Shown here piece after piece: positions 9,384 through 34,441 of a stretch of 64,000 nucleotides of DNA. A model generated the notes under the pieces. It ran no database searches. It saw only the letters and a list, made by a program, of their open reading frames with translations, and was not told where the DNA came from. The DNA is taken from the NCBI GenBank assembly GCA_002404835.1, contig DHKM01000035.1, forward strand, positions 96,921-160,920. The letters are read 5' to 3'. Position numbers and translations under genes: made by a program. Position 1 is the stretch's first letter, and every line of letters starts with the position of its first letter. This DNA comes from Bacillales bacterium UBA4694. Lineage in GTDB: Bacteria; Bacillota_I; Bacilli_A; RFN20; CAG-288.

Positions 9384-9408
9384 ATAAAAGATCCCTTTTA
9401 TAGGGATC
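9381..9408 (-). terminator. Rho-independent terminator after the hypB/135-aa gene pair
   Basis: Stem GATCCCT (9390-9396) / AGGGATC (9402-9408). On the minus strand it is followed by TTTTATTTA. It overlaps the TAG stop of the 135-aa gene. Confidence 0.6.
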
Positions 9409-13871: not shown

Positions 13872-15337
13872 TTTGTTTCTCCAAGTTGGTAGTTCAAAAG
13901 ATAATCTGGAATGGTTGTTTTTGATAAGTCTTTATAGGTTATTGTTCTTACAAGTTTTGTCTTAGTGGATTCTCCCACGGTAACGTTTCCTTCCATTGTA
14001 ATCTTGGATATATTTTCTTTTGAACTGTCAAGATATACTTTAAGTTCATATCCCGAACTTTGCTCAAATATAGGAACCAAAGCACCGATACAATATTCAT
14101 AGGTGGAAAGATAAGTGGTGAAATATCCATCTTCCTCTTTGAAGCAGTCAGGAGAAAGATAGGAAAAATAAGGAAGAAGGTCGATAAAATGATAAGTATC
14201 GTCTTCTGCCCCTAAGTAAGAATTGAGTTCTTTGGACTGAAGAACGCTGTGCGGTTCCATTGCATCGAAAGAGATAACATAAGGTTTCTTGCCTTCCGAC
14301 GTCATTAGATTTTTATAGCAAAGGTAATAATCGTATTCTTTAGTTGTTGTTTCTCCGCTTTCGTCCTTCAGGGTGAATTCCCTGGACCTCTTTGCATTGC
14401 AGAAGATGTTATTGTTATCTATACGATATTGATAGGATTCGTCTTCGTTTGGCGCAGACAGATAATGGTCATTGAATTCGATGGTATAGTTTGATGCATT
14501 TTTGATTTTGTCTAAAGCGGATTTAAGATAGGCATGGTTTTCGCTATGAGCATATGGCTTTATGGTTCTAGGGGTCGTGGAGCCGATATTATAGGCATCT
14601 AGTTCAAAAAGAAATTGATAGGCGCTTTGATAATCGTCGTCATCGTTAGATGCGTCAAGTTGAATTCTAAAACGATCTATTTGATCGCCGTCATAATGGA
14701 ATGCCAATTGTGTGACAACCAACGTCATCCCACCTTCTAATGGTTTTGTAACTTCATACCCAGTGAGGAAATAAGCCAGGTTCTTTTTGTCGGTATTATT
14801 CACGAATTCATACCAGTCCGGCATTTTCCGGATACCTTTTATGTTCTTCACTTCCAAGTCTTGGAATGGATTCTTCATCTTCTCACTGTATAGGTCATTG
14901 CTTGGAATGTCTAATACTTCATTGGTTAGGAGATTTAATTCATGGGAATGGAATTTCCCGTCTTTTCCCTGATAAAAAGATTCGCTTGTCAAAAGATCAT
15001 CGGTCGTTTGATCTGATTCTTCGTAATAATAGGAACTTTGGTTTACTTCAAGAAGGCAGTTGTTTGTTTCTTGATTTTCGCTGGAAGACCCTTGAGAAGA
15101 ATAACTGGATGTAGATATGACTGTACCCTTTAAGGTAAAACTAGTCGTAAAGGCTTCAAGTCCTTCTTTTAATTTTGTATAGGTCCCTTTGGTGGATACG
15201 ATACTAGGTTGCTGTTGTTGGCTGTTCGAAGTTTTTTCACTCGGATTCGAAGGGGATGATGGTGCACTTTGGCTTGGTGAGCAAGACGCTAACAAGGCCA
15301 AAGATAACGATAAGATAAAGCTAGTTTTGTGATTCAT
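13868..15337 (-). CDS. Lipoprotein, function unknown (distant paralogue of 10514..12193?)
   Basis: Lipobox LALLASC followed by a Ser/Pro/Gln-rich linker. 489 aa, Tyr/Asp-rich. ATGA-type 4-nt overlap with the next gene. Confidence 0.75.
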   Translation of the reverse strand: MNHKTSFILSLSLALLASCSPSQSAPSSPSNPSEKTSNSQQQQPSIVSTKGTYTKLKEGLEAFTTSFTLKGTVISTSSYSSQGSSSENQETNNCLLEVNQSSYYYEESDQTTDDLLTSESFYQGKDGKFHSHELNLLTNEVLDIPSNDLYSEKMKNPFQDLEVKNIKGIRKMPDWYEFVNNTDKKNLAYFLTGYEVTKPLEGGMTLVVTQLAFHYDGDQIDRFRIQLDASNDDDDYQSAYQFLFELDAYNIGSTTPRTIKPYAHSENHAYLKSALDKIKNASNYTIEFNDHYLSAPNEDESYQYRIDNNNIFCNAKRSREFTLKDESGETTTKEYDYYLCYKNLMTSEGKKPYVISFDAMEPHSVLQSKELNSYLGAEDDTYHFIDLLPYFSYLSPDCFKEEDGYFTTYLSTYEYCIGALVPIFEQSSGYELKVYLDSSKENISKITMEGNVTVGESTKTKLVRTITYKDLSKTTIPDYLLNYQLGETK

Positions 15338-15473
15338 TATTTTTCCTCATTGAACAATATGTTTATTTTACAATTTTTCAGTATTTAAAAATACATTTTT
15401 GTTTATTATTTTTCTTTTGGTTCGAATTTGTATGAATTTTCTATAGTATAATAAAAAGGACTGGAGAGTATAT

Positions 15474-18143
15474 ATGAAAAAAATCGTTGCGTTGATGATG
15501 CTTCCATTTGTTTTATGTAGTTCTTGTATGGCCCATTCTGATGATTCAAATTTTAGCAAACAATCCTACCATTCAAGTCAGGTCTCTAAAGACTTTTTAC
15601 TTTTTGTCAATCAAAATAATATTGGAAAATTTTCTGTTAATAATGGCGTTTTTTCTATAGATAACATTCTTCTAGAAAAAGGAGATGTTGTAAGTATTAA
15701 AAATAACGGAATTAATTATTTTTCTGCTGATTCGTATTCTAAGTCCTCTTACTTCATTAAAAAGCAAAATGCTGTAGAAATGTCTATAGAAGGCATATAT
15801 CGGATAACAATTGAAAATGATTCGGTGATTTTTACCCGTATATCCTCTATTTATCAGTCGTTTACGATTAAGTTTTCAGATGGAAGTGAGAAAAGTGGTA
15901 ACAAGATTGACGATTTTTCTTTCCAGATTTTATCTGTTCATATTTCCTTCCGACAAACCTTTTCTTTATATTTGAATCAAAAAAAGGTTACTGATGCAGA
16001 TATAGATTTAAAGGAACTGGAAAATTGTATTTCTATTTCCTCGGATGGTATGTTTTCTCCTCTACAATCAGGTGACTTCTCATTCTTCTATGACGCCAGA
16101 AAGGAAAAGTGCGTTTATCTTACTTCGGACTCTCTTTGTCCGCCTGCTTCTTTATTGACGAATAAAGAAGATTATCGACAACTTGTTTCTTCTTTTTCGG
16201 ATTCCAAGAATGATATCGTATCTATTGAATCAAAAAGTCTTGTAGAAGATAAAATCAACAAGACCAAAGAAGAAAAAGAAATTCGTCAGGAAAGTTATAT
16301 CAATGAATCGTCTTATTCTGTTTCTACAAGGCAGAATCCTATCGGGAACGACTTTCTCAGTACTACTATCGTTCGATGTTTCGATAGCGATAATTATTAT
16401 AGTTTAGAACAAGATGATGATACGGTTTCACTTCTAGACGCAAAAGTCATTTCTCAACCGATTAGAGAATATCCAAATGGATATGCTTCTATTGTTGATG
16501 ATGTGATTAGTCTACAGGAAGCAAAAAAACAGGTATCTTCTTTTTCACCTGAATTTGATACTTTGTCTTCCATTCTTTCTTCTCTTTTGGTTTCCAAGCA
16601 TATTTCTTCTTCTAATCCGATGACAGAGGAAGAGACAAAAATGTTTGAATCATCTTTTTTTCTTTCATCTCAGTATGTTGGTGAAAATGGCTCTTCTCAA
16701 AAAATCCAGGCTTTTGTTTTTGAAAAATCCAAAGGATTGACGACATCAAGTGCTGTGAAAGATGAAGTGTCTCTCCTTCTTTCCGAAGATGGTACTTTGA
16801 TTTCCGGAGATTATTGTCTTACCTATTATCAGGACAGTCCATCTCTTCTTCTTGAAGATTATTCTTTGTCCAGTTCAGCGAAAATCAGCAAAATTGAGTC
16901 CGGAAGTTTTTCTGTTACCTATGGGACAAGAACTCAGACACAGAATTTTAAGTTGAATCCGAAGGATTATGTTGCTACTGTATCTTCTTTGACTTTTGCG
17001 GAAGATATTTCACTTAAAGCTGGTGGCGAACTTTTTGATATACAGAATAGTATCTTTCTTTCTTCCGGTTCTTTTATCAACAAGGGGGATTTCCGTGTCA
17101 TGGCTTATGATCCGGAATTTTTCTATCCTGGTGTTGGAAATGACAAATATCTTTATACAAGAAACAAAGGCGGAAAAACTAAAATTTATGTCGGAACGAA
17201 ATATGATCCGGATATTATGGAACTTGATGTCGAGATACTGCTGAATGATGCAACCTCCGTTTCTTTAAAGGGACAGGATGGGAGAACTGATTTTTCGGAT
17301 GTAAGCTTTGAGATATCCACTGAATACAAGATCGAAGCGAGTGCCTTTTCCGGTCAGAATCCATGTTTTTCCGTGTCAAGCAATCACGACGATATTGTCA
17401 AGGTTAAGGAATGCTCTTCCAGAGATGAGTCTTTGGAAAACCAAAAAACTACTTTTACTTTGAGTTTCCTTAAGGAGGGAACAGCTAGTGTTACCGTCCA
17501 GAGTTTGTCAAATGCCAATGTTAAAAAGGTAATGAATATTACGGTAACAAAGCCGGTTTCTTTGGAAAAATACAAGGGAACCTATTACAGTAGTTCTTAT
17601 GGTACTCTTAAGATTTCCGAGGATGGAAATGCTATCTATATCAAAGACGGAAAGACTTACGGACTTCGCCTATCTCTTGTCAAGGATATGTTGGTTTTAG
17701 TCTCATCGGATGAGATCACGACTTTCGAAGCCAGTATTTCTATCTATAATGAAAAATTATCACTTCCCAAATTTTTGGTAAAATTAAAGACGAAGGATGG
17801 GAAGATTGATTTCTCCTATGTTTCCTTCTATCAGGGATTTCCATTGTTCGAAAATGAATGTCTTAAGAGTGGTGAAGCTACCTTGATGATTCAGAACTAT
17901 AAGGTCAGTTATTCTACCAGCAAGTTCCATGGAATATTGAAAGATGATGGCCATACGTTGGAATTTGATTTCAACATGGATTCTACAAGTAGCTGCTATA
18001 TGGATGATTCTTATGTCTTGGACGGAAACGAAGAATCCTACCAACTGAAAATTTCTTCTTATGAAGTAAAGCCGGAATTTATTTCTCTTTCCTTTTCCGG
18101 AAGTGGATACTTTGCTGAGAAGTCTTATTCCTTTGGTAAATGA
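15474..18143 (+). CDS. Large lipoprotein (889 aa) with a C-proximal Big_2-like domain
   Basis: MKKIVALMMLPFVLCSSC signal/lipobox with GGAGAG upstream. Ser-rich. An Ig-like segment reads ...DDIVKVKE...GTASVTVQSLSNANVKKVMNITV. Transcribed divergently from the three-lipoprotein operon. Confidence 0.8.
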   Translation: MKKIVALMMLPFVLCSSCMAHSDDSNFSKQSYHSSQVSKDFLLFVNQNNIGKFSVNNGVFSIDNILLEKGDVVSIKNNGINYFSADSYSKSSYFIKKQNAVEMSIEGIYRITIENDSVIFTRISSIYQSFTIKFSDGSEKSGNKIDDFSFQILSVHISFRQTFSLYLNQKKVTDADIDLKELENCISISSDGMFSPLQSGDFSFFYDARKEKCVYLTSDSLCPPASLLTNKEDYRQLVSSFSDSKNDIVSIESKSLVEDKINKTKEEKEIRQESYINESSYSVSTRQNPIGNDFLSTTIVRCFDSDNYYSLEQDDDTVSLLDAKVISQPIREYPNGYASIVDDVISLQEAKKQVSSFSPEFDTLSSILSSLLVSKHISSSNPMTEEETKMFESSFFLSSQYVGENGSSQKIQAFVFEKSKGLTTSSAVKDEVSLLLSEDGTLISGDYCLTYYQDSPSLLLEDYSLSSSAKISKIESGSFSVTYGTRTQTQNFKLNPKDYVATVSSLTFAEDISLKAGGELFDIQNSIFLSSGSFINKGDFRVMAYDPEFFYPGVGNDKYLYTRNKGGKTKIYVGTKYDPDIMELDVEILLNDATSVSLKGQDGRTDFSDVSFEISTEYKIEASAFSGQNPCFSVSSNHDDIVKVKECSSRDESLENQKTTFTLSFLKEGTASVTVQSLSNANVKKVMNITVTKPVSLEKYKGTYYSSSYGTLKISEDGNAIYIKDGKTYGLRLSLVKDMLVLVSSDEITTFEASISIYNEKLSLPKFLVKLKTKDGKIDFSYVSFYQGFPLFENECLKSGEATLMIQNYKVSYSTSKFHGILKDDGHTLEFDFNMDSTSSCYMDDSYVLDGNEESYQLKISSYEVKPEFISLSFSGSGYFAEKSYSFGK

Positions 18144-18151
18144 TTCAAACA

Positions 18152-18178
18152 AAAAAACGGGTTTTGGCCCGTTTTATT
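18152..18178. terminator. Bidirectional terminator between convergent genes
   Basis: AAAACGGG (18154-18161) / CCCGTTTT (18168-18175), flanked by an A-run and a T-run. It lies between the 889-aa lipoprotein gene and the MATE gene. Confidence 0.6.
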
Positions 18179-19598
18179 TTGATTCTTTTCGATCCTGTTT
18201 CTGAATGATGTGCTCAACAGGATGCTCCTCTAGTCGTTTTCTGAAAATCTTCGGAGTGACAATCAAATAGAAGATGAGTGCAAAGATTCCGGAGCAGGCA
18301 TCGGCTATTGGTTCAGCTAGGAAAGCGAAACTTGCTTCTTTGGTCAATAAGGGCAGCAAGATGGTCAAAGGAACAAGAATGAAGAGTTTTCTGTTGATGG
18401 ATAACCAGATGGAATAGTTTGCCTGTCCCATTCCGGTGAGGCCATCCACATAGACATATTGGAAAGCTAAAGGAATAATGCCCATCATGTACCAACGTAT
18501 GAATTTTATGCTGGCATTGATGATTTCTTCGGATGCTTGAGTCTTGGTGCCAAGTCCGACGAATATGGTTGAAAACGGTTTGGCTAGAATAAACGACAAT
18601 CCGAAACAAGCAGTACAGAAACACAGAGCAAATAGAGTAAGTTGTTTTTCGGCTTTCTTTATGATATCAATTCTCTTGGCTCCGTAATTGTAACCAAGAA
18701 TGGGTTGGGTACCTGAGGAAATTCCAAGAAGGGGACCTGTAATCAATGATTCGAATGCTTGGACGATGGTTGCTACTTCAATATAGAAATCCCCGTTTCC
18801 GTTTCCGAATTTTTGAAGCATGGCATTTAGAAGGATGATGATAACGCTGTCTGTGCCCATGATGATAAAAGGTGAAAAGCCGAGCTTTAGAATGTTTGCC
18901 ATGATTTTTAAATCGTAATTTCCGAAGGAAAGCTTGATTTTGCACCCCTTTAGAAGAAAGAGGATGGCAAGTAGGAAGGAAAGGAATTGACAAGAAATCG
19001 TAGCAAGTGCAGCTCCTTTTATTCCCATGTTGAATACATACATGAACAAAGGGTCTAATCCGATATTCAATAGACAGGCAAGACAGGTTGTTATCATTGC
19101 CTTGAAGGATTCACCTTGTGCGGTCAGAAACTGGTTCAGACCGAAAGAGATGATGGAGAAGTAGGTTCCTAGAAGATAGATCGTTAGGTAATCTCGAGCA
19201 TAAGGATATGACGTTTCTGATGCACCGAATGCGAACAACATCGGTCTCATAACGCTATAGAAGAGAATCATCAGGAAAGTGGAAAGAAGAATCAGCATCA
19301 ATAAAGCGTTGCTTAGTATTTTCTTTGCTTTCTCTTCGTTCTTTTCCCCTAGAGCGATTGAGAATAGAGGAGAACCTCCAAGTCCAATCAGGAAGGCAAA
19401 AGAGGTGATGAAGCTAGTGATTGGAGCAACAACTCCGATTCCGACAAGAGCCTGTTGACCATTGACGGGCATATTGGATACGTAAATTCTGTCTACGATG
19501 TTATATAGTACTGAAACAACCTGCGCAAACATGGCTGGTAGAGCAAGTCTGAGAATTGTCGGCCATGTTTTTTCACTTCCTAAATCCGTTTTCTTCAT
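18174..19598 (-). CDS. MATE family efflux transporter
   Basis: 12-TM protein with the N-terminus MKKTDLGSEKTWPTILRLALPAMFAQVVSVLYNIVDRIYV typical of MATE. The track start at 19649 is a TTG, so the ATG at 19598 is preferred. Confidence 0.85.
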   Translation of the reverse strand: MKKTDLGSEKTWPTILRLALPAMFAQVVSVLYNIVDRIYVSNMPVNGQQALVGIGVVAPITSFITSFAFLIGLGGSPLFSIALGEKNEEKAKKILSNALLMLILLSTFLMILFYSVMRPMLFAFGASETSYPYARDYLTIYLLGTYFSIISFGLNQFLTAQGESFKAMITTCLACLLNIGLDPLFMYVFNMGIKGAALATISCQFLSFLLAILFLLKGCKIKLSFGNYDLKIMANILKLGFSPFIIMGTDSVIIILLNAMLQKFGNGNGDFYIEVATIVQAFESLITGPLLGISSGTQPILGYNYGAKRIDIIKKAEKQLTLFALCFCTACFGLSFILAKPFSTIFVGLGTKTQASEEIINASIKFIRWYMMGIIPLAFQYVYVDGLTGMGQANYSIWLSINRKLFILVPLTILLPLLTKEASFAFLAEPIADACSGIFALIFYLIVTPKIFRKRLEEHPVEHIIQKQDRKESK

Positions 19599-19689
19599 TT
19601 TTTGATTTTCCGCGGAAAATAATATACGTTTAATTTTCGAATAAAACAAGATAAATCTTATAGAATTGAATATCCAAAAAGGGAAGGAG

Positions 19690-20202
19690 TCAGTCTTCGG
19701 CTCTCTTCCTCAAAATGATTTCGCTGTCTTGGTAGTTGATTTTATAATATCCTTCTTTTAAGTAGGCTTTGGATAGGGATTCTTCGAAAATCGGAATAAT
19801 CTGGTTTCCGTTGTCGTCTTTGTACACTGCCTTTTCCTTCTTTTCCTTGGAGATGTCCTTTAAATTATGGAACGTCAGAATTTCGGATAACTGGTCGCTT
19901 CTTTTCTTTTTGAAAGACAGAGAGAGGTAATTGGGACGTTGGCTTGTCACGCTATCGAAAAGGACATTGATTCCGGATGCATCATGGTATTCGCTCTTCT
20001 GGATTCTCTTTACCACAAGGGAATAGGAAATCCCCTCTTCTAAAATCTTTCCATCCTTTTCCTGGTAACCAGAAAATGTTCCGACCCGGAATATATTTTT
20101 TCTTTCGTTTGTTTTGCAGGAAGAGAGAGAGGAGGAAAATAGAAATAGGAAAAGACAAATACTGGTTTTCTTCTGAAACGAAAAAACTTTTCCAAACTTC
20201 AT
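19690..20202 (-). CDS. Small lipoprotein (170 aa), unknown function
   Basis: Signal plus lipobox (FSSSLSSC), with GAGGA upstream of the ATG. No terminator separates it from the upstream operon. Confidence 0.7.
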   Translation of the reverse strand: MKFGKVFSFQKKTSICLFLFLFSSSLSSCKTNERKNIFRVGTFSGYQEKDGKILEEGISYSLVVKRIQKSEYHDASGINVLFDSVTSQRPNYLSLSFKKKRSDQLSEILTFHNLKDISKEKKEKAVYKDDNGNQIIPIFEESLSKAYLKEGYYKINYQDSEIILRKRAED

Positions 20203-20262: not shown

Positions 20263-20973
20263 CTATTTTATACTCTCCTTTTGATGGAGTTCTTTCATGC
20301 CATCAACTGTGTCGCAGATTTCCTTGAAAGAGCAGGTGCTGCAATCCATTTTAAGATTTTTCATGATATGGTCTAAGGCAACGGTGATTCCTTCGCTTTT
20401 CTTTGACAACGATTCCAACGTTTTATAATCAAAGGCCGGATCCGTAATGAAAATTTGCTTTACGGATTTGACTTCATTTTGACTTTTGTAATGGTCTAAG
20501 AAAAGTTTGCCGATGTCTTTGAAAGAAATTCCTCTTTGCAGAGCATCATAGGAAATACGTATGCTCTCCTTAAGAAGACCGGTGTGGAATTTCAACATGA
20601 CTCCATCGGGATTGATTTTGTATCTTGTATATTCTACATTCCTTATGGTTCGGTAAAGTTCCTGTTCTTTTTTTTCACATTCTTTTAGAAAAACAAATGA
20701 AATATGGGCATAAGATAAGTGGCTTTTTAGGTCCTTGATATCATTTCCTATAAGTAAGATTTCATCTTCCAAAGAATGGTCGATTCCTTGTTCGTAGCAC
20801 ATCAGATAAGGTGAAGGGACTAGGGAAGAGCCGAGTGTTAAAGCAGTATCGGAAGCAAAAAGAAAGGTTTTTTCGTTTCCTTCCGGATAAGTTGAATTTA
20901 TATCCAGTCGTGTACTATTGAATTTTCCAACTAGAAGATCGGCTTCCTTGATAATTGATTCGTATAATTTCAT
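20263..20973 (-). CDS. 236-aa Cys-motif protein resembling the central domain of acetyl-CoA synthase (AcsB/CdhC-like fragment); last gene of the operon
   Basis: ATGA overlap with the preceding micro-ORF. Segments ILLIGNDIKDL, IRISYDALQRGISFKDIGKLFLDHYKSQNEVKSVKQIFITD and the C-terminal MDCSTCSFKEICD (C-x2-C-x5-C) match my recollection of the AcsB region just before and at the first A-cluster cysteines. The family call is unverified. Confidence 0.55.
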   Translation of the reverse strand: MKLYESIIKEADLLVGKFNSTRLDINSTYPEGNEKTFLFASDTALTLGSSLVPSPYLMCYEQGIDHSLEDEILLIGNDIKDLKSHLSYAHISFVFLKECEKKEQELYRTIRNVEYTRYKINPDGVMLKFHTGLLKESIRISYDALQRGISFKDIGKLFLDHYKSQNEVKSVKQIFITDPAFDYKTLESLSKKSEGITVALDHIMKNLKMDCSTCSFKEICDTVDGMKELHQKESIK

Positions 20974-21149
20974 TCAAGATGACGGTTTCTCTTTCTTTTA
21001 TCGTATTTTTTATTTATCCATTTTTGAATAACGGCTAATAATTTGCTATCAAGATTGAAAAAATATACGATGAAAAGAAGAATCAGCATAAGAAGAATGA
21101 ATCCGAAAAGTGAGCCTAATACAATGAGTAGAATCTGCCACCATGACAT
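20970..21149 (-). CDS. 59-aa single-pass membrane peptide (not in the ORF track)
   Basis: Hand translation gives MSWWQILLIVLGSLFGFILLMLILLFIVYFFNLDSKLLAVIQKWINKKYDKRKRNRHLE. GAGGTG lies 7 nt upstream. It starts 1 nt after the activase stop, and its TGA overlaps the next ATG. Confidence 0.55.
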   Translation of the reverse strand: MSWWQILLIVLGSLFGFILLMLILLFIVYFFNLDSKLLAVIQKWINKKYDKRKRNRHLE

Positions 21150-21150
21150 A

Positions 21151-21954
21151 TCAGTTCACCTCGTTTAATCCTTTCTGACGAGCATATTCTGCAGCACCCA
21201 AGGCCCCCATGAGCTGAGGATCAATAGGAAGATCTTTCACCTTAAGATGCAAAACACGTTCGATTGCCTGCTTCAGTCCGAGGTTTTTCGCACAGCCACC
21301 GGTTAATGCGATGGAATCTGTGGCTCCAGCTTTTTTAGCCATGACGAAACATCTTTTGGCAACAGAGGTCATGATTCCTGCTGCGATTTCTTCCATCGGC
21401 TTTCCTTCGCCAACCAATGAAATGACTTCCGATTCACAGAAAACCGTACATTGAGAAGTGATGGGGATGACGTTCTTTGCTTTAAGGGATAAGGAACAGA
21501 ATTCATCCAAATCCATTTCAAAACTTCTTGCCATGGCCTCAAAGAATCTTCCTGTTCCGGCAGAACATTTATCGTTCATGGCAAAGTTCATGACAGTGCC
21601 ATCTTTTGGGTCAATGGCTATTCCCTTTATATCTTGGCCCCCGATATCGATAATGGAAGTGATGCTAGGGTCAGTGATATGGACACCCATGCAATGGCAG
21701 GAGATTTCCGATATGTTTTCATCAGCAAAAGGCACTTTATTTCTTCCATATCCTGTTCCAATCAGATAATCGAGATCTTCGATTTTGTTCAGTCCATCGA
21801 CTTGGGAAATGGTTTCTTCTAAAGCGATTCTTGCACTTTCGACTGGATTGATTTTCGATTTCAAAGTTGTATGGGCGACCATTTTTCCTTTTTCATCAAG
21901 AATGACGCATTTTGTATAGGTAGAGCCAGCGTCGCAACCGCCAAAGTATTTCAT
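21151..21954 (-). CDS. ATP-dependent activase of 2-hydroxyacyl-CoA dehydratase / BcrAD-BadFG family (ASKHA ATPase)
   Basis: MKYFGGCDAGSTYTKCVILDEKG... and IDIGGQDIKGI, CAGTGRF, LTGGCAKN motifs. The track start at 21975 is a TTG, so I use the ATG at 21954 with an AGAAAGGA SD. Confidence 0.9.
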   Translation of the reverse strand: MKYFGGCDAGSTYTKCVILDEKGKMVAHTTLKSKINPVESARIALEETISQVDGLNKIEDLDYLIGTGYGRNKVPFADENISEISCHCMGVHITDPSITSIIDIGGQDIKGIAIDPKDGTVMNFAMNDKCSAGTGRFFEAMARSFEMDLDEFCSLSLKAKNVIPITSQCTVFCESEVISLVGEGKPMEEIAAGIMTSVAKRCFVMAKKAGATDSIALTGGCAKNLGLKQAIERVLHLKVKDLPIDPQLMGALGAAEYARQKGLNEVN

Positions 21955-21968
21955 GTTATTTTTCCTTT

Positions 21969-23525
21969 CTACCAACGTTCGGTATCGTCAAAATCGACAA
22001 GGCTGTCATCCAAAGGCGTTTCTCTCATGACGGTCTTCATATATCGGTTGACATCTTCACGCATGTCTTTTCTTGAGGCTTTTGTCGGATTCATCAAGGC
22101 ATGGTAAACCCAAACGATATGGATACCTCTTTTTCTTCCTTCTTCTTCCAATAATCCATGATAACCGGCCATGGATTTACATCCGATATGTTCGTACATA
22201 ATGACCATGTCTGCGTTATATTCTTCGCAGTACTGCCAGAGCTGTTCGACACCGACTTCATAGCCGCCATTGGAATGATTTCTCATGATCATATTCATGT
22301 TGTATTCACCAAGATCCAATAAAGCTTGCTCATGGTCCTCGTAATGAATTGGTTTGGTCAAGGTAAAAGAAAGCATATCACAAAGGCAGACGATACCCCA
22401 GCAATTGCTTAACCACTGATTGAAAGCAGTGTAATATTGGGCATGAACGCCCCAAACCAAAGCCCTATGACGGATTTCCTTACAAGGAAGGACATGATTC
22501 TTATATCCTTCTTTTGCAAGTTGAGTAATCTTTTGATCGTATTTTAGGAATGAAGCATCTCTTCCTGAAATGACCATATATTCTGCATCACGGTAGAGCA
22601 TGACGTTGTTGTTGACGACTTGCGGATAGTTTGTTTTGTTCATTTCCATCCATTCTTCGAACAAGGCATTCTGAGCATTGTAGGTCTTCATGTTTTTGCT
22701 AAAGGCATCCCAGTCCCATTTTTCACCGGTATGTTTTTCGATGAAATGTATTGCTTCAACAATTTGATCTCTTGAATAAGCCAAAACGGATTTCTGCTGA
22801 TGCCTCATCGGAGCAGCCATCGTAAAGGATGGCAAATCGTCGTGTCTATCTTCGATCTGGTTTCCCATAAGCGAACCGTCGCAGGTCGTATTGCAATGAA
22901 TGGCACAGACTCCGCAGATCGGATAGTCTTCGTCGATGGCACAGCCGAGTTCTGCACAGGGCATAGGACAGACATCCCCTGGAATCTGGAATTCTTCCGC
23001 TACTTCGATGTAATGCATGACTCCAGTCTGACTGATAGTAGAACCGGTATAAATAGCCGGGACTTCCTTGGATAGGAACTTCAAATTTGGGAATCCGGTA
23101 GCAATGACCATCATTCCGTTTTCGTCCATAATGACGAGTTTCTTGTTCAATTCATCGTATTTTCCGTTTTTGTTTCCGATTCTCTTGTCACATTTGAACA
23201 AAGTATCCATGGTCTGGGTAAGATGCTCAACGATGGAATCGTATTCGATATGTCCGATTCTCAGCTGCGGACCTCGTACTCCCTCCATGTGTCTATCGAT
23301 ATAATCGAAAGCTGCAAGGTAGTTTCCAAACCATCGATAAGTGAACATGGCTTTTAACGTAGTCGGTTTCATAATGAACTTTCCCATGACAAGAAGGTTA
23401 TGCAACCATCTCGAGAAATCATACATGGTGTCTTTGAATCCGCGCCATTCACGATGTTTATATGTTTTCTTGCCAGGATTTTGTAGCTTTCCGAGCTTTT
23501 GTTTCTGTGTCCTAGTGTCTTTCAT
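21969..23525 (-). CDS. 2-hydroxyacyl-CoA dehydratase / benzoyl-CoA reductase BcrBC family (HGD-D) protein, large subunit
   Basis: 518 aa from the ATG at 23525, 2 nt after the upstream stop, with an AAGGAGA SD. It carries a Cys-dense loop GDVCPMPCAELGCAIDEDYPICGVCAIHCNTTCDGS. The C-terminal ADMVIMYEHIGCKSMAGY is typical of the family. Confidence 0.75.
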   Translation of the reverse strand: MKDTRTQKQKLGKLQNPGKKTYKHREWRGFKDTMYDFSRWLHNLLVMGKFIMKPTTLKAMFTYRWFGNYLAAFDYIDRHMEGVRGPQLRIGHIEYDSIVEHLTQTMDTLFKCDKRIGNKNGKYDELNKKLVIMDENGMMVIATGFPNLKFLSKEVPAIYTGSTISQTGVMHYIEVAEEFQIPGDVCPMPCAELGCAIDEDYPICGVCAIHCNTTCDGSLMGNQIEDRHDDLPSFTMAAPMRHQQKSVLAYSRDQIVEAIHFIEKHTGEKWDWDAFSKNMKTYNAQNALFEEWMEMNKTNYPQVVNNNVMLYRDAEYMVISGRDASFLKYDQKITQLAKEGYKNHVLPCKEIRHRALVWGVHAQYYTAFNQWLSNCWGIVCLCDMLSFTLTKPIHYEDHEQALLDLGEYNMNMIMRNHSNGGYEVGVEQLWQYCEEYNADMVIMYEHIGCKSMAGYHGLLEEEGRKRGIHIVWVYHALMNPTKASRKDMREDVNRYMKTVMRETPLDDSLVDFDDTERW

Positions 23526-23527
23526 AG

Positions 23528-24721
23528 TCAAGCATTCTCCTTACCCTGGATTTTCTTGATTTCCAGAGCTTCGATGAAGGCCTGGATTCTTGTTCTCAGC
23601 TGGCCGGATTGGCCTACATTGTAGGGTCTATCGATACTAAGTGTTTTGTAGTGATATTGGTTTTGCATGACAGCATTCATGAACGCTCTTCCATATCCCC
23701 AATAGTCACAGAATTTGATCTGTTCGATGATTATTCCGTCGACTTTGTATTCTTTGGCAATTTTATCGATATAGGCATGTCTTTCGTTGACTTTTTCTGT
23801 TGTTAAGAATCGTGGACATTGTCCAGATTCCATATAGTATCTACAGACTTGGGTCAAGGCATCTTCTTCAGCGTTCAGCTTTATTTCTTGTCTTCCTGGT
23901 AAGGAACCGAAACAATATCTGTCTGCAACGATGATCAAACCGCATTCTTCAGCCAATTTCAGAAGCTGTGGATCATCGATTTCGGATCCGACTAGGGCTA
24001 CTCTGGCACGATAGGTCCCTTTTTTGTCCGGAATTCTAGTCTTAAGTTCTTCGCATGTTTCTTCGAGTTTCTGAATCAGCTTGTCTTTTGGACAACAGTA
24101 TGTGCTAAGACAAAGGACAGCAAACTCGTATCCTGTGATTCGGGGTTGTTCATCTTTTCTGTATTCCCCGATTTCTGTAATCAGTCTGGAAATGATATTC
24201 TGTTCCTCTACTGCCTTTCTGATGGCATTATCGGAAATGTCGATATGAAAGTGTTCGTTGAGAGGCTTAAGAACATGTTCCTTCATCTGGAGAACATAAT
24301 GCTTCAATGTCGTTTCATCGGATTTCATCGGTACATCGACGTATGAAGCAAAGAAACCTTCATTAGGACAGCAGTCTAGGTGTTCAATGTTTTCAACGCA
24401 TCGGTTCATCATGGCACAAGCTTCTGGAGCGATAATGGCATTTAGAAAGTTGAATCCCCCTTCCAATGCTCTTTCCAGGATGGCTCGACAAGCTTCGCAG
24501 AAAATCGGAGACAAATAATAGTTTCCCATTTCGGTCGTTCCCGTTCTGGGTGCTCTAAGGCGAACAGAAAAAATGCCCGGAAGATTCAAAAGCGGTTCCG
24601 GAATCTGATAACAGACGTGTCCGATTGCTTTTCTTCCTTCCGCCTGAGCTTCCGAAATGAGGTCGTTATAGGAGTTTTCGAGAAGCTTTTCGAAATAGTA
24701 CAAGTGTTTTAAATCTCTCAT
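23528..24721 (-). CDS. 2-hydroxyacyl-CoA dehydratase / BcrBC family (HGD-D) protein, small subunit
   Basis: 397 aa. Family-typical LVGSEIDDPQLLKLAEECGLIIVADRYCFGS and VDGIIIEQIKFCDYWGY (KFCD motif). A TAGGAGA SD overlaps the stop of the upstream gene. Confidence 0.8.
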   Translation of the reverse strand: MRDLKHLYYFEKLLENSYNDLISEAQAEGRKAIGHVCYQIPEPLLNLPGIFSVRLRAPRTGTTEMGNYYLSPIFCEACRAILERALEGGFNFLNAIIAPEACAMMNRCVENIEHLDCCPNEGFFASYVDVPMKSDETTLKHYVLQMKEHVLKPLNEHFHIDISDNAIRKAVEEQNIISRLITEIGEYRKDEQPRITGYEFAVLCLSTYCCPKDKLIQKLEETCEELKTRIPDKKGTYRARVALVGSEIDDPQLLKLAEECGLIIVADRYCFGSLPGRQEIKLNAEEDALTQVCRYYMESGQCPRFLTTEKVNERHAYIDKIAKEYKVDGIIIEQIKFCDYWGYGRAFMNAVMQNQYHYKTLSIDRPYNVGQSGQLRTRIQAFIEALEIKKIQGKENA

Positions 24722-24730
24722 ATTTATCTC

Positions 24731-25498
24731 CTAGAGAACATGAATCTTTTCCAAGGCTTCTTTTGCTCCTTTGACAATGTAGCTGTCATCATCGAGGAAA
24801 AACACATTTTCGCCATCCATATCGTAACGAGCAAGTTTGTCATCCATAGGAATTCTACTGAGGAGAGGCAAAGGTGATAGATCGAAATCTTCCTTCATTG
24901 CCAAAGGTGAGAGACGATTTGCAATCACTCCGATTTCTTTGTACATGACAAGGGAGTCGGCTACTGATTTGATGGTCTTGACTACCTGAATGCCTTTTTT
25001 GCTTTGATCTGTGACAAGAATCAAATGGGTTACCTTTTCCATGACTCGGCGATTGATTTGTTCGATACCAGCTTCACCATCGATTACCACATAATCATAA
25101 TGAGAGGAAATCTGAGCAATGACTTCTTTTAAATAGGTATTGATTTTGCAGTAGCATCCGCTAGCTTCCGGCCTTCCTATTGCCATGAAGGAAAAACCGT
25201 TTTTCTCGACTAGGGCTTCTTCAATCGAATAGCTTGCGTTGCCAAGAACTTCCACAACGGCATTTTTACCGCCATCTTCGCTGGCTTTTATAGCCTCTTT
25301 TCTTACGTCATCAATGGTCTTGCTTGGTTCGATTCCTAAAGCTGTGGACAGACCGATGGCAGGATCAGCGTCGATGGCAAGGATCCTCTTTTCTTTTTTG
25401 TTTTCGACCAAAAGTTTTACGATTACGGCTGCAAGAGATGTTTTACCAACTCCTCCTTTTCCTGCGACTGCGATGATGCACGGTTGATTGTTTTCCAT
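24731..25498 (-). CDS. CooC/AcsF-type (MinD/ParA superfamily) metallocluster-maturation ATPase, first gene of the operon
   Basis: Deviant Walker A AVAGKGGVGKTSLAA plus a Cys pair in EASGCYCKINTYL (the CxC motif of CooC-type proteins). The track start at 25552 is a TTG, so I use the ATG at 25498 (MENNQPCIIAVAGKGG). Confidence 0.75.
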   Translation of the reverse strand: MENNQPCIIAVAGKGGVGKTSLAAVIVKLLVENKKEKRILAIDADPAIGLSTALGIEPSKTIDDVRKEAIKASEDGGKNAVVEVLGNASYSIEEALVEKNGFSFMAIGRPEASGCYCKINTYLKEVIAQISSHYDYVVIDGEAGIEQINRRVMEKVTHLILVTDQSKKGIQVVKTIKSVADSLVMYKEIGVIANRLSPLAMKEDFDLSPLPLLSRIPMDDKLARYDMDGENVFFLDDDSYIVKGAKEALEKIHVL

Positions 25499-25599: not shown

Positions 25600-25631
25600 A
25601 AAGAAAAACAGTCGGTATTAGCCGACTGTTT
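25600..25631 (-). terminator. Rho-independent terminator after the 229-aa lipoprotein gene
   Basis: ACAGTCGG (25608-25615) / CCGACTGT (25622-25629). On the minus strand it is followed by TTTTTCTTTG. Confidence 0.6.
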
Positions 25632-26631: not shown

Positions 26632-26660
26632 TAAATAACTAAAATTTGAGAGGGCAGTCT

Positions 26661-27995
26661 ATGTCTGAGTATGATAAGCATTTTTCATTGGGCGCATTAT
26701 TTAAAATGGCTTTTCCAAGCATCATTATGATGATTTTTTCCAGTATTTATGGGGTGGTGGATGGACTTTTCATTTCGAATGTGGAAGGGAATACAGCCTT
26801 CAGTGCCATCAATTTTATCATGCCTTATCTTATGCTTCTTGGCGTATTTGGCTTCATGTTCGGTTCTGGCGGCGCTGCTCTAGTCAGTAAGACTTTTGGT
26901 GAAAAGGATGATAAGAGAGCTAATCGTTATTTTACTATGCTCATGATTGTGCTTTTTATTCTTGGAATTGTGGCAACGATTTTTGGTTTCTTTACGGTAA
27001 AGCCAATGGCAAGCCTTCTTGGCGCCGATGCTGAAATGCTTCCCTATTGTGAAGTGTATGGGCATGCCATGATGTTCTTTGTTCTGTTCTTCATGTTCCA
27101 AAATGCATTTCAGTCCTTTATGGTTGTTGCACGAAAACCGATGCTTGGCTTCTTTTTTACTTTTTGTGCGGGTGTTACCAATATTTTAGGAGATTTTCTT
27201 CTCGTTTATGTTTTCCGTTATGGCGTTTTTGGCGCTGCAATCGCTACTGGTTTGAGTCAGATTATTGGCTCACTTCTTCCTTTTTTGTATTTGGTTTTGT
27301 TTCCTCACAAAACCCCACTACACTTTGAAAAGACAAGGTTGGAATTCAAACCGATTATCAAGGCAATGTCCAATGGGCTATCTGAGATGGTCAGCAACGT
27401 TTCGATGTCCCTAGTCAATATGCTTTTTAATGCTCAGCTGATGAAATTCATCGGGCAAAATGGTGTTTCGGCTTTTGGAATCATTATGTATGCCAGTTTT
27501 GTTTTTGTCGGAGTATATTTTGGCTATTCGGTCGGTGTTTCCAGTGTGATTTCCTATCATTATGGAGCACAAAATTGTGAGGAACTTGGATCTCTTCTCC
27601 GGAAATGTCTTTTGACCTATTGTATTTTTTCGGTCATTTTATCGACAAGTGCTATCCTTTTGGCTAAGCCAATAGCCTTGATATTCGTAAGAGAGAATCC
27701 TGAACTTGTCGCTCTCAGTGAGAGGGCGATTCGTTTTTATTCCATATCTTTCTATTTTTCAGGATTTAATATCTTTGCTTCTTCTTTCTTCACGGATCTT
27801 AATGATGGATTTGTAAGTGGTGTCATTTCTTTTGCCCGGACTTTTTTCTTCCAAGTGATTGCGATTCTTGTCTTTCCTGTTTTGTTTGGTCCGGATTCTT
27901 TATGGTTTGCAGTTCTTTTTGCGGAACTTTGTTCTTTGGGTTTGTCTGTTGCATTTTTATTTGCTAAGGAAAAGAAATACCACTATTTTGCCTAG
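26661..27995 (+). CDS. MATE family efflux transporter
   Basis: 12 TM, with MATE-type N-terminus FKMAFPSIIMMIFSSIYGVVDGLFISN. The track start at 26646 is a TTG. The ATG at 26661 follows GAGAGGG. Confidence 0.85.
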   Translation: MSEYDKHFSLGALFKMAFPSIIMMIFSSIYGVVDGLFISNVEGNTAFSAINFIMPYLMLLGVFGFMFGSGGAALVSKTFGEKDDKRANRYFTMLMIVLFILGIVATIFGFFTVKPMASLLGADAEMLPYCEVYGHAMMFFVLFFMFQNAFQSFMVVARKPMLGFFFTFCAGVTNILGDFLLVYVFRYGVFGAAIATGLSQIIGSLLPFLYLVLFPHKTPLHFEKTRLEFKPIIKAMSNGLSEMVSNVSMSLVNMLFNAQLMKFIGQNGVSAFGIIMYASFVFVGVYFGYSVGVSSVISYHYGAQNCEELGSLLRKCLLTYCIFSVILSTSAILLAKPIALIFVRENPELVALSERAIRFYSISFYFSGFNIFASSFFTDLNDGFVSGVISFARTFFFQVIAILVFPVLFGPDSLWFAVLFAELCSLGLSVAFLFAKEKKYHYFA

Positions 27996-28506: not shown

Positions 28507-31101
28507 TTAGACGATACTCAAGTATTTGTTTTCGATTTCTCCCTTTTCCCACAATCCTTTCTTGGATTCTGGAACAAGGACGAAATGACCGGGTTTCATT
28601 TCACACCAATGGCATTTCTCATAGTCCAGATTTGCCTTGTGATAGACATATTTCTGTTTGCTGCCGTTGGTTTTCGGATCGGGCTGGGGGATTGCAGTAA
28701 GAAGAGCTTTAGTATAAGGGTGGATTGGATCTTTATAAATGTCTTCTGCATTTCCTAATTCTACGATATGCCCCTGATGCATGACTGCAATTCTATCTGA
28801 AATGTAGCGGATAATGCTTAGATCATGGGCGATAAATAGATAAGTAAGGTTCTTTTCTTCCTGCAATTTTCTGAGAAGATTCAGAACTTGTGCTCGGATA
28901 CTGACATCAAGTGCAGAAATCGGTTCATCGGCAAGAATGAGTTCGGGTTCGATGACTAGTGCTCTTGCGATTCCGATACGCTGCCTTTGACCACCGGAGA
29001 ATTCATGTGGGTAACGGCTTAGGTGTTCGGGAAGAAGGCCGACAGATTCCATTATCTCAGTCACCTTACTGATTCTTTCTTCTTTGCTTTTGAACAGATG
29101 GAAATTGTATAGTCCCTCACTGACAATATAGTCGATGTTTGCTCTTTCGTTCAAAGAAGCTGCAGGGTCCTGGAAAATCATCTGGATATTCTTTTTCGAC
29201 TGCTTTTCTTCTTGTTTTGTGAGCTTTTTGGAGATGAGTTTTCCTTTGAAGTAGATGGCACCGCTATGGAGTTTGTTTATGCCAAGGATTGCTCTGGAAA
29301 TGGTTGTTTTCCCGGAACCGGATTCTCCGACTAAGCCGAAAGTCTCTCCGACATGGATATCGAAATTAAGATTCTGCGAGGCTTTAACTACGTTCTTTCC
29401 GCTACCGAAGTAAATGTTTGCGCTGACGACCGAAAGGAGGATTTCTTTTCCTGTACGATCTGTTGTCGGGAAATACTCCAACATTCCGGTCTTCTTATCA
29501 ACGCGGTATTTATACTGTTGAATTGGATTTTTCTTTATTTCGCTGAGCGTTTTCTCATCTAGGATTTTTTCCAGGAATTCCTTTTTGAATCTATTCTTTC
29601 TGAACTTGCTTGGAAGGATGTTTGAACCTTTGTAGTATATGGCACCTCGGATTTTTACATCTTTGGAGTAGAATGCTCGGACAATATAGATGAGTGCTTC
29701 GGATTTTTTGTCTTCGAATTTATCCCCTTTCTTATAGTCCATGGAGAAATCGTGATCGAATATATAATCTCCATCTTCGGATACGATATTCACACGGTCG
29801 AATCTAACTAGGATGTCCGAATGCTTCATTCCGTTTAGACTTTGTGGAATAAAGGTGAGGTTATCGGGGTAGTATTGATCAAAATAGTCTGTTAGTTGAA
29901 GAAGGCGGAATCGATCTTCGACCGTGAATCTACTATTGATTCGAATAAAATCTTCATTGTCATTTAAATAGATTCCTGTTGCATTTTCAGCTTTGATTCG
30001 TCGTCTTTCCACTTCGCTTTTTGACATCGAGGATGGAATCAACATTCCATCTAGATATAAAGCGCCAGTTAGTATTGTTTTATGGAAAAACAGAGATTGG
30101 ACGATTTTTAGTTTGATCTTGTCTTCTTCATCTTTAAGGTTGAAGGAATGGTCGGCAATGATATTGAAATTGGAGAATTTTTTATCATACCCCAATAATT
30201 CAACATCTGCGTTGAGGACACTGATGGAGATGGGATGGTTTTGTCTATCTCTCATCGGATAGAAAAGTGGATATCCGGTTTGTCTGTCTTTGGTTACATT
30301 CATAAGGATGTAATCTTTGTCTTCGACGCTGAAATTCTTTTTGACGAAAGATTTTTCTAGATAAAGTCGGAATTCTTCTGTTAGGGAAGAGGGAAGTAGT
30401 TTTCCTTTGTAATAGAATCCTTTTACTTCCTTGTCTTTATCCAAAAGGGATTTGATTACGGTGATTTTGCTGATGTCATCCTTTGAATTTAAATCAAAAA
30501 GATCGCCTTGGAATATTTCGAAAGTGTAACTATCTTTGGCTAGATTTTTGTTTTGCTTGTCCTGGATTGTTGCTTTATAAGCTCGGAAGATGACTTTCTT
30601 TCCGCTTTTTGTTTTGGTTGGAAGATAACAGAGTGGGACATCTGCCTTAAGGGAACAGGACTCAATGATTTCCTTGTCTTCGCTGTGAAAATAGCGATCC
30701 ATGAATAACCACATAAGGTTTGTCTTGAATTTTCTATCAATTTTATCTGTGCAGAATTTCCCTTTGAAGTAGATGGCACCACCTGTCTTTCTTTCCTGTG
30801 AGAACAATGCGAAGAGAAAATCGAGTTTTGCAAGCTGCTCTTTGTTTTCGGAATCGAATTCTTCGCTTTCCAAAACATCGAAGCAGTAGGATTTGTTCGA
30901 CAATGACTGCCCTTTTAGGTTGCTTATTTTTCCGTCTACGACCTTGATAAGAACATTTTTGGCAAATTTGTTCTTCAAAGGTATACTTAGAGGAAAACCG
31001 TATTTGTTCAAGGGGGCTCTTTTGCGGATTTCGTCGAAATCGTCACTTGTCAGCATGGAAAGCGCGTCATCATTCCTGGGCTGTTTTATGTTGTCCTTCA
31101 T
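28507..31101 (-). CDS. oppF: Oligopeptide ABC transporter ATPase OppF with a ~550-aa N-terminal extension
   Basis: The canonical NBD occupies residues ~553-864: Walker A GESGSGKT, signature FSGGQRQR, Walker B LILADEPISALD, H-loop FIAHDL, and an oligopeptide C-terminal domain. GGAGG lies upstream of the ATG at 31101. The extension is internally repetitive (see findings). Confidence 0.9.
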   Translation of the reverse strand: MKDNIKQPRNDDALSMLTSDDFDEIRKRAPLNKYGFPLSIPLKNKFAKNVLIKVVDGKISNLKGQSLSNKSYCFDVLESEEFDSENKEQLAKLDFLFALFSQERKTGGAIYFKGKFCTDKIDRKFKTNLMWLFMDRYFHSEDKEIIESCSLKADVPLCYLPTKTKSGKKVIFRAYKATIQDKQNKNLAKDSYTFEIFQGDLFDLNSKDDISKITVIKSLLDKDKEVKGFYYKGKLLPSSLTEEFRLYLEKSFVKKNFSVEDKDYILMNVTKDRQTGYPLFYPMRDRQNHPISISVLNADVELLGYDKKFSNFNIIADHSFNLKDEEDKIKLKIVQSLFFHKTILTGALYLDGMLIPSSMSKSEVERRRIKAENATGIYLNDNEDFIRINSRFTVEDRFRLLQLTDYFDQYYPDNLTFIPQSLNGMKHSDILVRFDRVNIVSEDGDYIFDHDFSMDYKKGDKFEDKKSEALIYIVRAFYSKDVKIRGAIYYKGSNILPSKFRKNRFKKEFLEKILDEKTLSEIKKNPIQQYKYRVDKKTGMLEYFPTTDRTGKEILLSVVSANIYFGSGKNVVKASQNLNFDIHVGETFGLVGESGSGKTTISRAILGINKLHSGAIYFKGKLISKKLTKQEEKQSKKNIQMIFQDPAASLNERANIDYIVSEGLYNFHLFKSKEERISKVTEIMESVGLLPEHLSRYPHEFSGGQRQRIGIARALVIEPELILADEPISALDVSIRAQVLNLLRKLQEEKNLTYLFIAHDLSIIRYISDRIAVMHQGHIVELGNAEDIYKDPIHPYTKALLTAIPQPDPKTNGSKQKYVYHKANLDYEKCHWCEMKPGHFVLVPESKKGLWEKGEIENKYLSIV

Positions 31102-32209: not shown

Positions 32210-32216
32210 GTCCTCC

Positions 32217-33173: not shown

Positions 33174-33186
33174 GGATGACCTCCTT

Positions 33187-34374: not shown

Positions 34375-34441
34375 GTGTTTTCCTTTCTCTCATTAACCGA
34401 AAAGATGATGAGTACCCCCATCATCTTTTCTTTCGATGAGA

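Follow-up and report, generated by a model that had tools for sequence, protein, structure and literature searches.

A conserved six-gene operon of gut and rumen anaerobes that probably encodes an ATP-driven metalloreductase with CooC-type and acetyl-CoA synthase-related parts

The DNA analysed is a 64-kb stretch (hereafter the window) of contig DHKM01000035.1 from Bacillales bacterium UBA4694, in which six minus-strand genes between positions 20263 and 25498 encode a CooC-type ATPase, two subunits of the HGD-D superfamily, an activase, a small membrane peptide and a truncated protein related to acetyl-CoA synthase (ACS). We consider it reasonably likely that this operon specifies an undescribed, membrane-tethered, ATP-driven low-potential metalloreductase of the superfamily that holds benzoyl-CoA reductase (BCR), 2-hydroxyacyl-CoA dehydratase (HAD) and the double-cubane proteins, with a BzdNO-like build joined to CooC and ACS A2 parts. 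A preliminary description of the DNA had proposed an uncharacterised hybrid of an ATP-driven reductase with CooC- and ACS-derived parts, and profile searches, fold comparison and synteny all supported that proposal. The CooC ATPase, the truncated ACS protein and the membrane peptide would be additions new to the HGD-D enzyme class, and the sequences suggest that the operon is probably a nickel-dependent variant of the ATP-driven reductases represented by BCR and the double-cubane cluster protein (DCCP).

All six open reading frames (ORFs) lie where they had been described, with the same gaps and overlap, and independent gene calls for the contig (ENA ERZ808299 NODE_317, L001 in our numbering of loci) gave the same six starts. 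In the direction of transcription the genes encode the CooC-type ATPase (24731–25498, 255 amino acids), the small HGD-D subunit (23528–24721, 397 amino acids), the large HGD-D subunit (21969–23525, 518 amino acids), an ASKHA activase (21151–21954, 267 amino acids), a single-pass membrane peptide (20970–21149, 59 amino acids) and the truncated ACS-like protein (20263–20973, 236 amino acids). The spaces between them are 9, 2, 14 and 1 nt, after which the stop of the 59-residue gene overlaps the start of the 236-residue gene by 4 nt (ATGA). Clear purine-rich Shine-Dalgarno sites, which had been described as lying in the ends of the preceding genes, were found at five of the six starts (AGAAAGG, TAGGAGA, AAGGAGAA, AGAAAGGAAAA and ACGAGGTGA); the start of the 236-residue gene relies on the ATGA overlap. 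The tight spacing and the overlap point to co-translation of the operon.

The two expected matches to PF06050 were recovered, at 2.7e-80 for the 397-residue protein and 6.6e-38 for the 518-residue protein. The earlier assignment of the pair to the small and large subunits of the 2-hydroxyacyl-CoA dehydratase/BcrBC family held at the level of the superfamily; the small subunit, with its six cysteines, proved to be like BzdN and DCCP and not like its HAD counterpart. It is a full-length HGD-D protein with BzdN (8s02_B, 8e-22) as its best PDB relative. Its invariant C37, C75, C102, C270, C302 and C338 align one to one with C36, C73, C100, C263, C293 and C327 of BzdN, which are the ligands of the [8Fe-9S] double cubane (PMC11971306), and the 397-residue subunit is predicted to hold such a double cubane for the storage and transfer of electrons. 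The seventh cysteine of the DCCP motif, which is not a ligand, is absent.

Foldseek comparison of the AlphaFold2 model of the 518-residue subunit (predicted local distance difference test, pLDDT, 82.7) placed BzdO (8s02_C, 3e-14), HadB (3o3m_A, 5e-14) and MbdO at the top, with E-values ranging to 1e-12, ahead of DCCP (1e-11) and of the N/beta subunits. These three nearest folds are catalytic, CoA-ester-binding subunits, and from the model we presume the 518-residue subunit to be the catalytic one. The three canonical ligands of the catalytic cubane are present (C186, C215 within TTCDG, and C449), and the ligands of the distal subcluster are not. Four additional cysteines, C207, C211, C375 and C433, were invariant or nearly so among 29–46 homologues, which gives the overall pattern C-x20-C-x3-C-x3-C-x159-C-x57-C-x15-C. 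The model places C375 and C433 in the C-terminal domain, at the ends of helices that lead into adjacent strands and apart from the loops of the canonical cluster. The subunit belongs to a 90%-identity cluster of 579 members; that of the ACS-like protein has 4. Among candidate Rosetta-stone fusions, a 690-residue HgdL homologue (P0242) was an assembly duplication, and longer matches to the ACS-like protein were mere extensions. In one related locus (L092) a second, divergently oriented pair of small and large HGD-D genes lies just 5' of CooC (2432–5162, minus strand), and two reductase cores may share one activase, CooC and ACS-like set there.

The activase was recognised as had been predicted, by PF01869 (BcrAD/BadFG; 1.8e-52), and also by TIGR00241 (218.7 bits, cutoff 125.4). 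Its PDB matches were MbdQ (1e-59), HadI (4e-58) and HgdC (2e-55), and C130 and C169, the cysteines of the bridging [4Fe-4S] cluster, are invariant. By sequence it appears to be an ATP-driven electron injector of the HgdC/HadI/MbdQ type with a bridging [4Fe-4S] cluster. Protein identity of the activase is at least 75% across phyla, and more than 12 unrelated metagenome contigs end within or just past its gene (L010–L014, L017, L019, L021, L023, L049, L058, L067, L077, L081, L083). Such conservation is the probable reason why assemblies collapse or break here, and may also be a sign that the cluster has spread horizontally. In its family alignment the 59-residue peptide has a single transmembrane helix together with a basic cytoplasmic tail that is strongly conserved (VYFFNLDSKL...YDKRKRNRHL), the arrangement of a tail-anchored protein.

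The first gene encodes an ATPase of the MinD/ParA class with the deviant Walker A motif GKGGVGKT (AVAGKGGVGKTS). This motif and the sequence SGCYC were both present as reported, and the expected CooC/ParA-type P-loop was found as a CbiA/ParA-type one (Pfam CbiA/AAA_31). The best relative in the PDB, over the full length, was CooC1 of Carboxydothermus hydrogenoformans (3kje, E 1.3e-14). The protein's Cys115-Tyr-Cys117 aligns with the metal-binding CYC of CooC1, and both cysteines were invariant in 47 orthologues; matches in NCBIfam were to the generic MinD/ParA/ArsA families. The ATPase is presumed to be a nickel insertase. The usual client of a CooC/AcsF ATPase, a CODH (carbon monoxide dehydrogenase) or a full ACS, was found neither within the 64 kb nor in the annotated flanks of those related loci that were checked; in the window, the gene for the truncated 236-residue protein alone is ACS-related.

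Other signs of nickel lie around the cluster. Some sister clusters carry CooT (PF10133, E 6e-16, N-terminal Met-Cys), inserted directly beside CooC, together with a His-rich DUF8180 protein, and HypA and HypB adjoin many related clusters. Indirectly, these CooT, HypA and HypB neighbours in sister loci would support ATP-dependent binding and insertion of nickel by the CooC-type ATPase. In the window itself an equivalog of HypB is encoded 10 kb away (9812–10483, minus strand; TIGR00073 235.6 bits, cutoff 121.2); a 135-residue ORF that overlaps it downstream (9408–9815, minus strand) had no family match. Neither a hydrogenase, a urease nor an IsrA-like gene was found in the 64 kb, and CooT, HypA and a recognisable nickel transporter were likewise absent from the window. 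One candidate for the last, an Opp-type ABC system, best matched Mycoplasma OppA/OppF and not NikA.

The 236-residue protein had been likened to the central domain of ACS and to PF03598. Taken alone it scored 18.2 bits against PF03598, below the gathering score of 24, and a single-sequence search of the PDB returned a chance match to FosB (E 0.78). Since the single sequence gave nothing significant, the kinship with ACS was visible only by family profile and fold search. A 20-sequence family profile matched ACS only among PDB entries (E 8e-6), over residues 316–472 of the M. thermoacetica enzyme, which form the A2 domain. The top 23 Foldseek matches of the AlphaFold model (pLDDT 87) were all ACS (6e-10 to 6e-5), and the next match had an E-value of 0.29. 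Ten residues are invariant in the family and identical in M. thermoacetica ACS (D42, G48, G76, D78, Y118, G124, R139, G148, F151 and G155).

Past the A2 domain the model shows a helix, a loop of low confidence and a final helix, which together bear the invariant C211-x2-C214-x5-C220 and the conserved H202 and H230. The family consensus is DC-xT-C-S[FL]Kx[IV]-C, and the ACS sequence checked in the PDB reads ...YYS-C-LL-C-QSFAPTHV-C...C. The family's C-x2-C-S-[FL] begins 30 residues past the end of the A2 alignment, and C506-x2-C509-Q-S-F of ACS 34 residues past it. Because motif and distance both match, C211, C214 and C220 look like a remnant of the A-cluster, namely the first three cysteines of its [4Fe-4S] part. 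The fragment proposed earlier can be defined more closely in this way, as an A2 domain with an A-cluster reduced to three cysteines. Acetyl-CoA binds ACS mainly at A2 (bioRxiv 10.1101/2024.08.05.606187), and by analogy the 236-residue protein may bind CoA.

The ACS-like family comprises 779 representatives at 50% identity, almost all of 230–250 residues, and was matched in at least 577 stretches of species-representative genomes. The carriers are mostly gut and rumen Firmicutes, the rest including Treponemataceae and Mollicutes-like Bacilli; hosts of the cluster were found among Lachnospiraceae, Oscillospiraceae, Christensenella, Mollicutes-like Bacilli, Clostridium and spirochaetes, with Butyrivibrio, Pseudobutyrivibrio, Clostridium gasigenes and mouse-gut Lachnospiraceae among the cultured carriers. 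Named cultured strains with the cluster include Pseudobutyrivibrio xylanivorans DSM 14809, Butyrivibrio fibrisolvens 16/4 and Eubacterium sp. 14-2. We examined 80 of the matching genomic loci; synteny was counted in the 57 related, non-identical loci where 5.5 kb or more was available 5' of the ACS-like gene, and neighbours on both sides in the 41 loci with both flanks. The activase was present in 51, each of the two HGD-D subunits in 52, CooC in 51 and the membrane-peptide family in 48 of the 57 loci. CooC, both HGD-D subunits and the activase occurred jointly in 48/57, so the arrangement is not due to chance, and conservation of the gene set, which the preliminary description had named as a check, was borne out. 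In one subclade the genes are arranged differently, as DUF8180, small subunit, large subunit, activase, peptide, CooT, CooC, ACS-like. Compared with the window, median identity was highest in the activase (79%), followed by CooC (64%), the small subunit (60%), the large subunit (49%) and the ACS-like protein (39%). Some loci hold partial sets: one has the cluster without an activase (L053), one has CooC, activase, peptide, ACS-like gene and HypA without HGD-D genes (L071), one has an isolated ACS-like/CooC pair (L055), and one has a lone ACS-like gene with HypB about 5 kb off (L064).

These parts can be assembled into a proposed route for electrons. Powered by ATP hydrolysis, a homodimer of the activase, bridged by a [4Fe-4S] cluster, would drive an electron from this cluster into the 397-residue subunit, whose [8Fe-9S] double cubane would store electrons and then pass them on. 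The 518-residue subunit, bearing a three-cysteine [4Fe-4S] site with an open iron as well as the four family-specific cysteines, would be the catalytic one. A stand-alone ACS A2 domain would be the added subunit of the complex; of the four cysteines around the A-cluster's [4Fe-4S] part, it retains three at its end. The CooC-type ATPase would most likely insert nickel at a site on the ACS-like subunit or interfacing with it, and the tail-anchored peptide would tether the assembly to the membrane. We infer all metal assignments in the cluster from sequence. As to the substrate, a hard-to-reduce unsaturated or aromatic compound, possibly in the form of a CoA thioester, can be named as a speculation.

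Each of the known systems resembles a part of the operon. BzdNO and MbdNO with their ATPases BzdPQ and MbdPQ (PDB 8s02, 9gai) likewise have a two-subunit HGD-D heterodimer, with the same six double-cubane cysteines in BzdN, the same fold and three-cysteine [4Fe-4S] site in BzdO, and an ASKHA ATPase with a bridging cluster. DCCP and its reductase DCCP-R (C. hydrogenoformans CHY_0487/0488; PDB 6eno, 7yyl) share the six-cysteine [8Fe-9S] ligands, the TTCDG motif and the ATP-dependent reductase partner, and neither DCCP nor the present operon has a known physiological substrate. DCCP is a homodimer with the full seven-cysteine motif in each subunit, whereas here six ligands are found in the small subunit only, and the scores with the DCCP model NF040772, 132.7 and 45.4 bits, fall short of its cutoff of 350. 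ACS (AcsB/CdhC) with AcsF/CooC is alike in the A2 fold and sequence core, in the C-x2-C-(Q)-S-F motif at an equivalent place, and in the CooC-family ATPase with Cys-x-Cys encoded alongside. Unlike ACS, the 236-residue protein has no A1 domain and its A3 domain is cut off after the third cysteine; CODH, corrinoid protein and methyltransferase are missing from the window, and the stacking Trp is not kept.

Several observations weigh against the operon being a reductase with an ACS-like nickel subunit. The 236-residue protein has neither the fourth cysteine of the [4Fe-4S] part nor the Cys-Gly-Cys nickel site, because it stops at residue 236, and so it cannot form a true A-cluster. In the family profile alignment the adenine-stacking Trp of ACS A2 (W418 of M. 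thermoacetica) is replaced by Lys or Arg, and CoA binding by the protein is therefore not assured. The ACS-like gene diverges much faster than the other four genes (median 39% versus 49–79%), a pattern that suits an accessory factor more than a catalytic subunit. Even in close relatives the large subunit is 86–95% identical and the ACS-like protein 45–58%; in L008 the values were 88% for CooC, 91% for the small subunit, 95% for both the large subunit and the activase, 85% for the MATE transporter downstream and 58% for the ACS-like protein. The same was seen across L015–L027 and L088–L090, and relaxed constraint, diversifying selection and gene replacement are candidate causes. CooC is absent from L051 and L059, and the ACS-like gene stands alone in L064 and L074. 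CooT was found in only about 8 of 92 loci, and in 3 of the 41 with both flanks. CooC-type ATPases bind zinc too and their relatives carry Fe-S clusters, which leaves nickel unproven.

Nickel is nevertheless, on sequence grounds, the most economical account of why CooC, CooT, the His-rich DUF8180 protein, HypA and HypB gather at the cluster. We advance tentatively the further idea of a new nickel-enzyme class, in which CooC, with CooT, HypA or HypB in some lineages, would assemble a Ni-Fe-S site where the ACS-like protein has its three-cysteine "half A-cluster", and ATP-energised electrons from the double cubane would feed it. The missing ligands might come from cysteines of the 518-residue subunit such as C375 and C433. 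Such a site might perform ACS-like thioester or organometallic chemistry, or reduce unactivated hydrocarbons or aromatics, often in tandem with IsrA-type reductases. It is possible, though on balance unlikely, that no nickel is involved: the CooC-like ATPase would then deliver iron, zinc or an Fe-S unit, as its relatives of the Mrp/NBP35 type do, making the complex a double-cubane reductase of the all-iron kind. The generic NCBIfam matches of the ATPase would suit this, as would a window with a Mycoplasma-type Opp system and no CooT, HypA or recognisable nickel transporter; CooC1 also binds zinc. Against it stand the full-length match to CooC1 with the Cys-x-Cys aligned, the position of CooT directly beside CooC in sister clusters, and the recurrence of HypA and HypB beside the cluster, with HypB present in the window.

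The rapid divergence of the ACS-like protein keeps alive another, somewhat unlikely, explanation, in which the CooC-type and ACS-like proteins are assembly factors only. As a scaffold-insertase pair they would build an Fe-S or Ni-Fe-S cluster in the 518-residue subunit and then leave, so that the enzyme would consist of the HGD-D heterodimer and its activase. By precedent CooC is a maturation ATPase, and the ACS-like gene is the fastest-evolving of the set. The two genes stay paired without HGD-D genes in L055 and L071 and are adjacent in the gene order of the L004 type, and the four extra conserved cysteines of the 518-residue subunit could receive a cluster. On the other hand, the 236-residue protein retains residues shared with the A2 core of ACS, and its gene is translationally coupled to that of the membrane peptide, which would be unusual for a transient chaperone. 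The clusters of DCCP and BzdNO, moreover, form in Escherichia coli with no dedicated factors (PMC7317905, PMC11971306).

The commonest additional neighbours of the cluster were an IsrA-family Fe-S flavoprotein of about 900–960 residues and HypA, which adjoin it in 19 of the 41 loci; Clostridium gasigenes and one spirochaete have two IsrA-family copies each. Loci with this pair, sometimes with HypB and TetR as well, include L035, L039, L040, L043–L046, L050, L057, L060, L063, L066, L085, L091, L093 and L095, among others. The two CxC motifs of the flavoprotein, 74 residues apart, match those of the putative isoprene reductase IsrA. It is conceivable, if improbable, that the whole module has no substrate of its own and serves as an ATP-driven reductive activator or electron feeder for this nickel Fe-S flavoprotein. 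The frequent adjacency, the double copies and the matching motifs would favour such a role; the 64 kb contains no IsrA-like gene, however, nor is there one near the cluster in over half of the loci, while the 518-residue subunit has a catalytic-subunit fold and is the most conserved of the set, as its 579-member cluster indicates. We also considered a "split ACS", where the CxC domain at the N terminus of the adjacent IsrA-like protein would be the missing A3 domain. Searches of that domain against the PDB, with a single sequence and with a 12-sequence profile, returned no ACS and nothing significant, and the idea found no support at the sequence level.

In Acetobacterium wieringae's isr operon (IsrA, HypA, HypB; PMC10134865) the same IsrA-family and HypA/HypB components occur that adjoin many sister clusters. 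In each of the two systems nickel chaperones accompany an Fe-S reductase of unassigned chemistry, and no classical nickel enzyme is adjacent. As described, the isr operon has no HGD-D, activase, CooC or ACS-like gene, and the window has HypB without an IsrA homologue. The isoprene-reducing A. wieringae is also reported to have an additional CODH/ACS beta subunit, ISORED2_01878, encoded away from the acs operon (PMC10134865). It is a candidate for membership of the truncated ACS-like family.

A class I (Bzd-type) aryl-CoA reductase, or another Birch-type reductase of CoA esters acting on dietary aromatic acids, is a still weaker candidate, which we regard as quite improbable. The architecture of a six-cysteine N-like subunit with an O-like catalytic subunit is that of BzdNO, the nearest activase is MbdQ, and a CoA-binding module of the A2 type would suit a CoA-ester substrate. 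The curated BCR models, however, scored far below their cutoffs (BzdN 85.9 versus 453.8 bits; BzdO 16.7 versus 448.6 bits). Identity of the 518-residue subunit to BzdO and MbdO is just 13–16%, and it has about 80 extra residues along with its four extra conserved cysteines. Placed by the cysteine ligands, Ser218 (Cys215 +3) stands where BzdO has the catalytic His131 (Cys128 +3). There is a single activase gene in place of a P/Q pair; the CooC-type, ACS-like and membrane-peptide genes have no counterpart in BCR systems; and no aromatic-degradation context, CoA ligase or dienoyl-CoA pathway gene was found in the window or in the annotated flanks. The hosts, too, include small-genome gut bacteria of the Mollicutes-like type.

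An ordinary 2-hydroxyacyl-CoA dehydratase of amino-acid fermentation, to which two PF06050 proteins and an HgdC-type activase might point, is very improbable, given a small subunit with the six-cysteine double-cubane set in place of three cysteines, scores of 27 bits for HadB (cutoff 750) and 88 bits for HadC (cutoff 700), and no CoA-transferase, 2-hydroxyacid dehydrogenase, acyl-CoA dehydrogenase or electron-transferring flavoprotein (ETF) in the window or the annotated flanks checked. Curated scores, ligand patterns and context together disfavour both this enzyme and a bona fide benzoyl-CoA reductase.

The preliminary description had stated that the normal partners of both systems are absent, and none of them (CoA-transferase, acyl-CoA dehydrogenase, ETF, CODH, corrinoid protein, methyltransferase) was found in the 64 kb. 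It had also raised the prospect that relatives might keep the genes inside a fermentation cluster; around the related loci checked, the flanks annotated with Pfam held none of these partners and no fermentation genes. The window contains transporters, lipoproteins, two-component systems, sugar enzymes, the Mycoplasma-type Opp system and the HypB equivalog. The Opp system (28507–36673) best matched the Mycoplasma (JCVI-syn) OppA/OppF models, which fits the label "Mollicutes bacterium" on identical proteins. Its OppF-type ABC ATPase (28507–31101, minus strand; 864 residues) has an N-terminal extension of about 550 residues without a Pfam match. Four large lipoprotein genes (559, 563, 489 and 889 residues) with lipobox-like N-termini stand in a row at 10514–18143; the 563-residue product has BspA-type leucine-rich repeats, and the four are mostly without family assignment.

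The transcription unit is bounded on its 5' side by a terminator-like hairpin after the upstream lipoprotein gene (25606–25631, minus strand), with a 10-pair stem and a T-run. Its probable 3' end is a second terminator-like hairpin, after the MATE gene (18154–18175, minus strand). The latter hairpin had been reported as the first visible terminator downstream and was found again; the only other minus-strand terminator-like matches were weak ones in the leader 5' of cooC (25576–25560) and inside the 170-residue gene (20091–20079). As the next strong terminator on the same strand is that at 18175–18154, the transcript may continue through the genes for a 170-residue lipoprotein (19690–20202, minus strand) and a MATE efflux transporter (18174–19649, minus strand; PF01554 and TIGR00797), which would possibly be its last gene. 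Co-transcription of the two, which had been suggested, is possible in that no convincing terminator precedes 18175, but the lipoprotein has homologues only in loci identical to the window and is not conserved with the cluster, and a MATE gene adjoins the cluster in only 5 of the 41 loci (L008, L009, L051, L089, L091). A further MATE exporter lies on the other side of the operon (26646–27995, plus strand), and the two are 26% identical. Rfam searches at gathering thresholds for a riboswitch or other RNA 5' of the operon, in the window and four related loci, returned tRNAs only.

Full-text literature searches on CooC, HGD-D, double-cubane, ACS and IsrA topics gave no description of the six-gene set, and the Haft SAO/double-cubane preprint, the mlp gene-cluster preprint and the isoprene-reductase papers concern other systems. 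ATP-driven archerases such as BCR, HAD and DCCP are responsible for some of biology's most strongly reducing reactions, and the physiological role is known for few of them. The variant described here occurs in gut and rumen anaerobes, in several hundred genomes at species level, and its combination of such a reductase with nickel-cluster maturation proteins and an ACS fragment has no described precedent. If nickel were confirmed, it would be a new nickel enzyme and would place an ACS A2/half-A-cluster module outside the Wood-Ljungdahl pathway. The variant's frequent occurrence alongside IsrA-family reductases could explain why its host organisms possess nickel chaperones while having neither hydrogenase nor CODH, and could be a pointer to a reductive sink, so far unrecognised, for compounds from the diet or the host.

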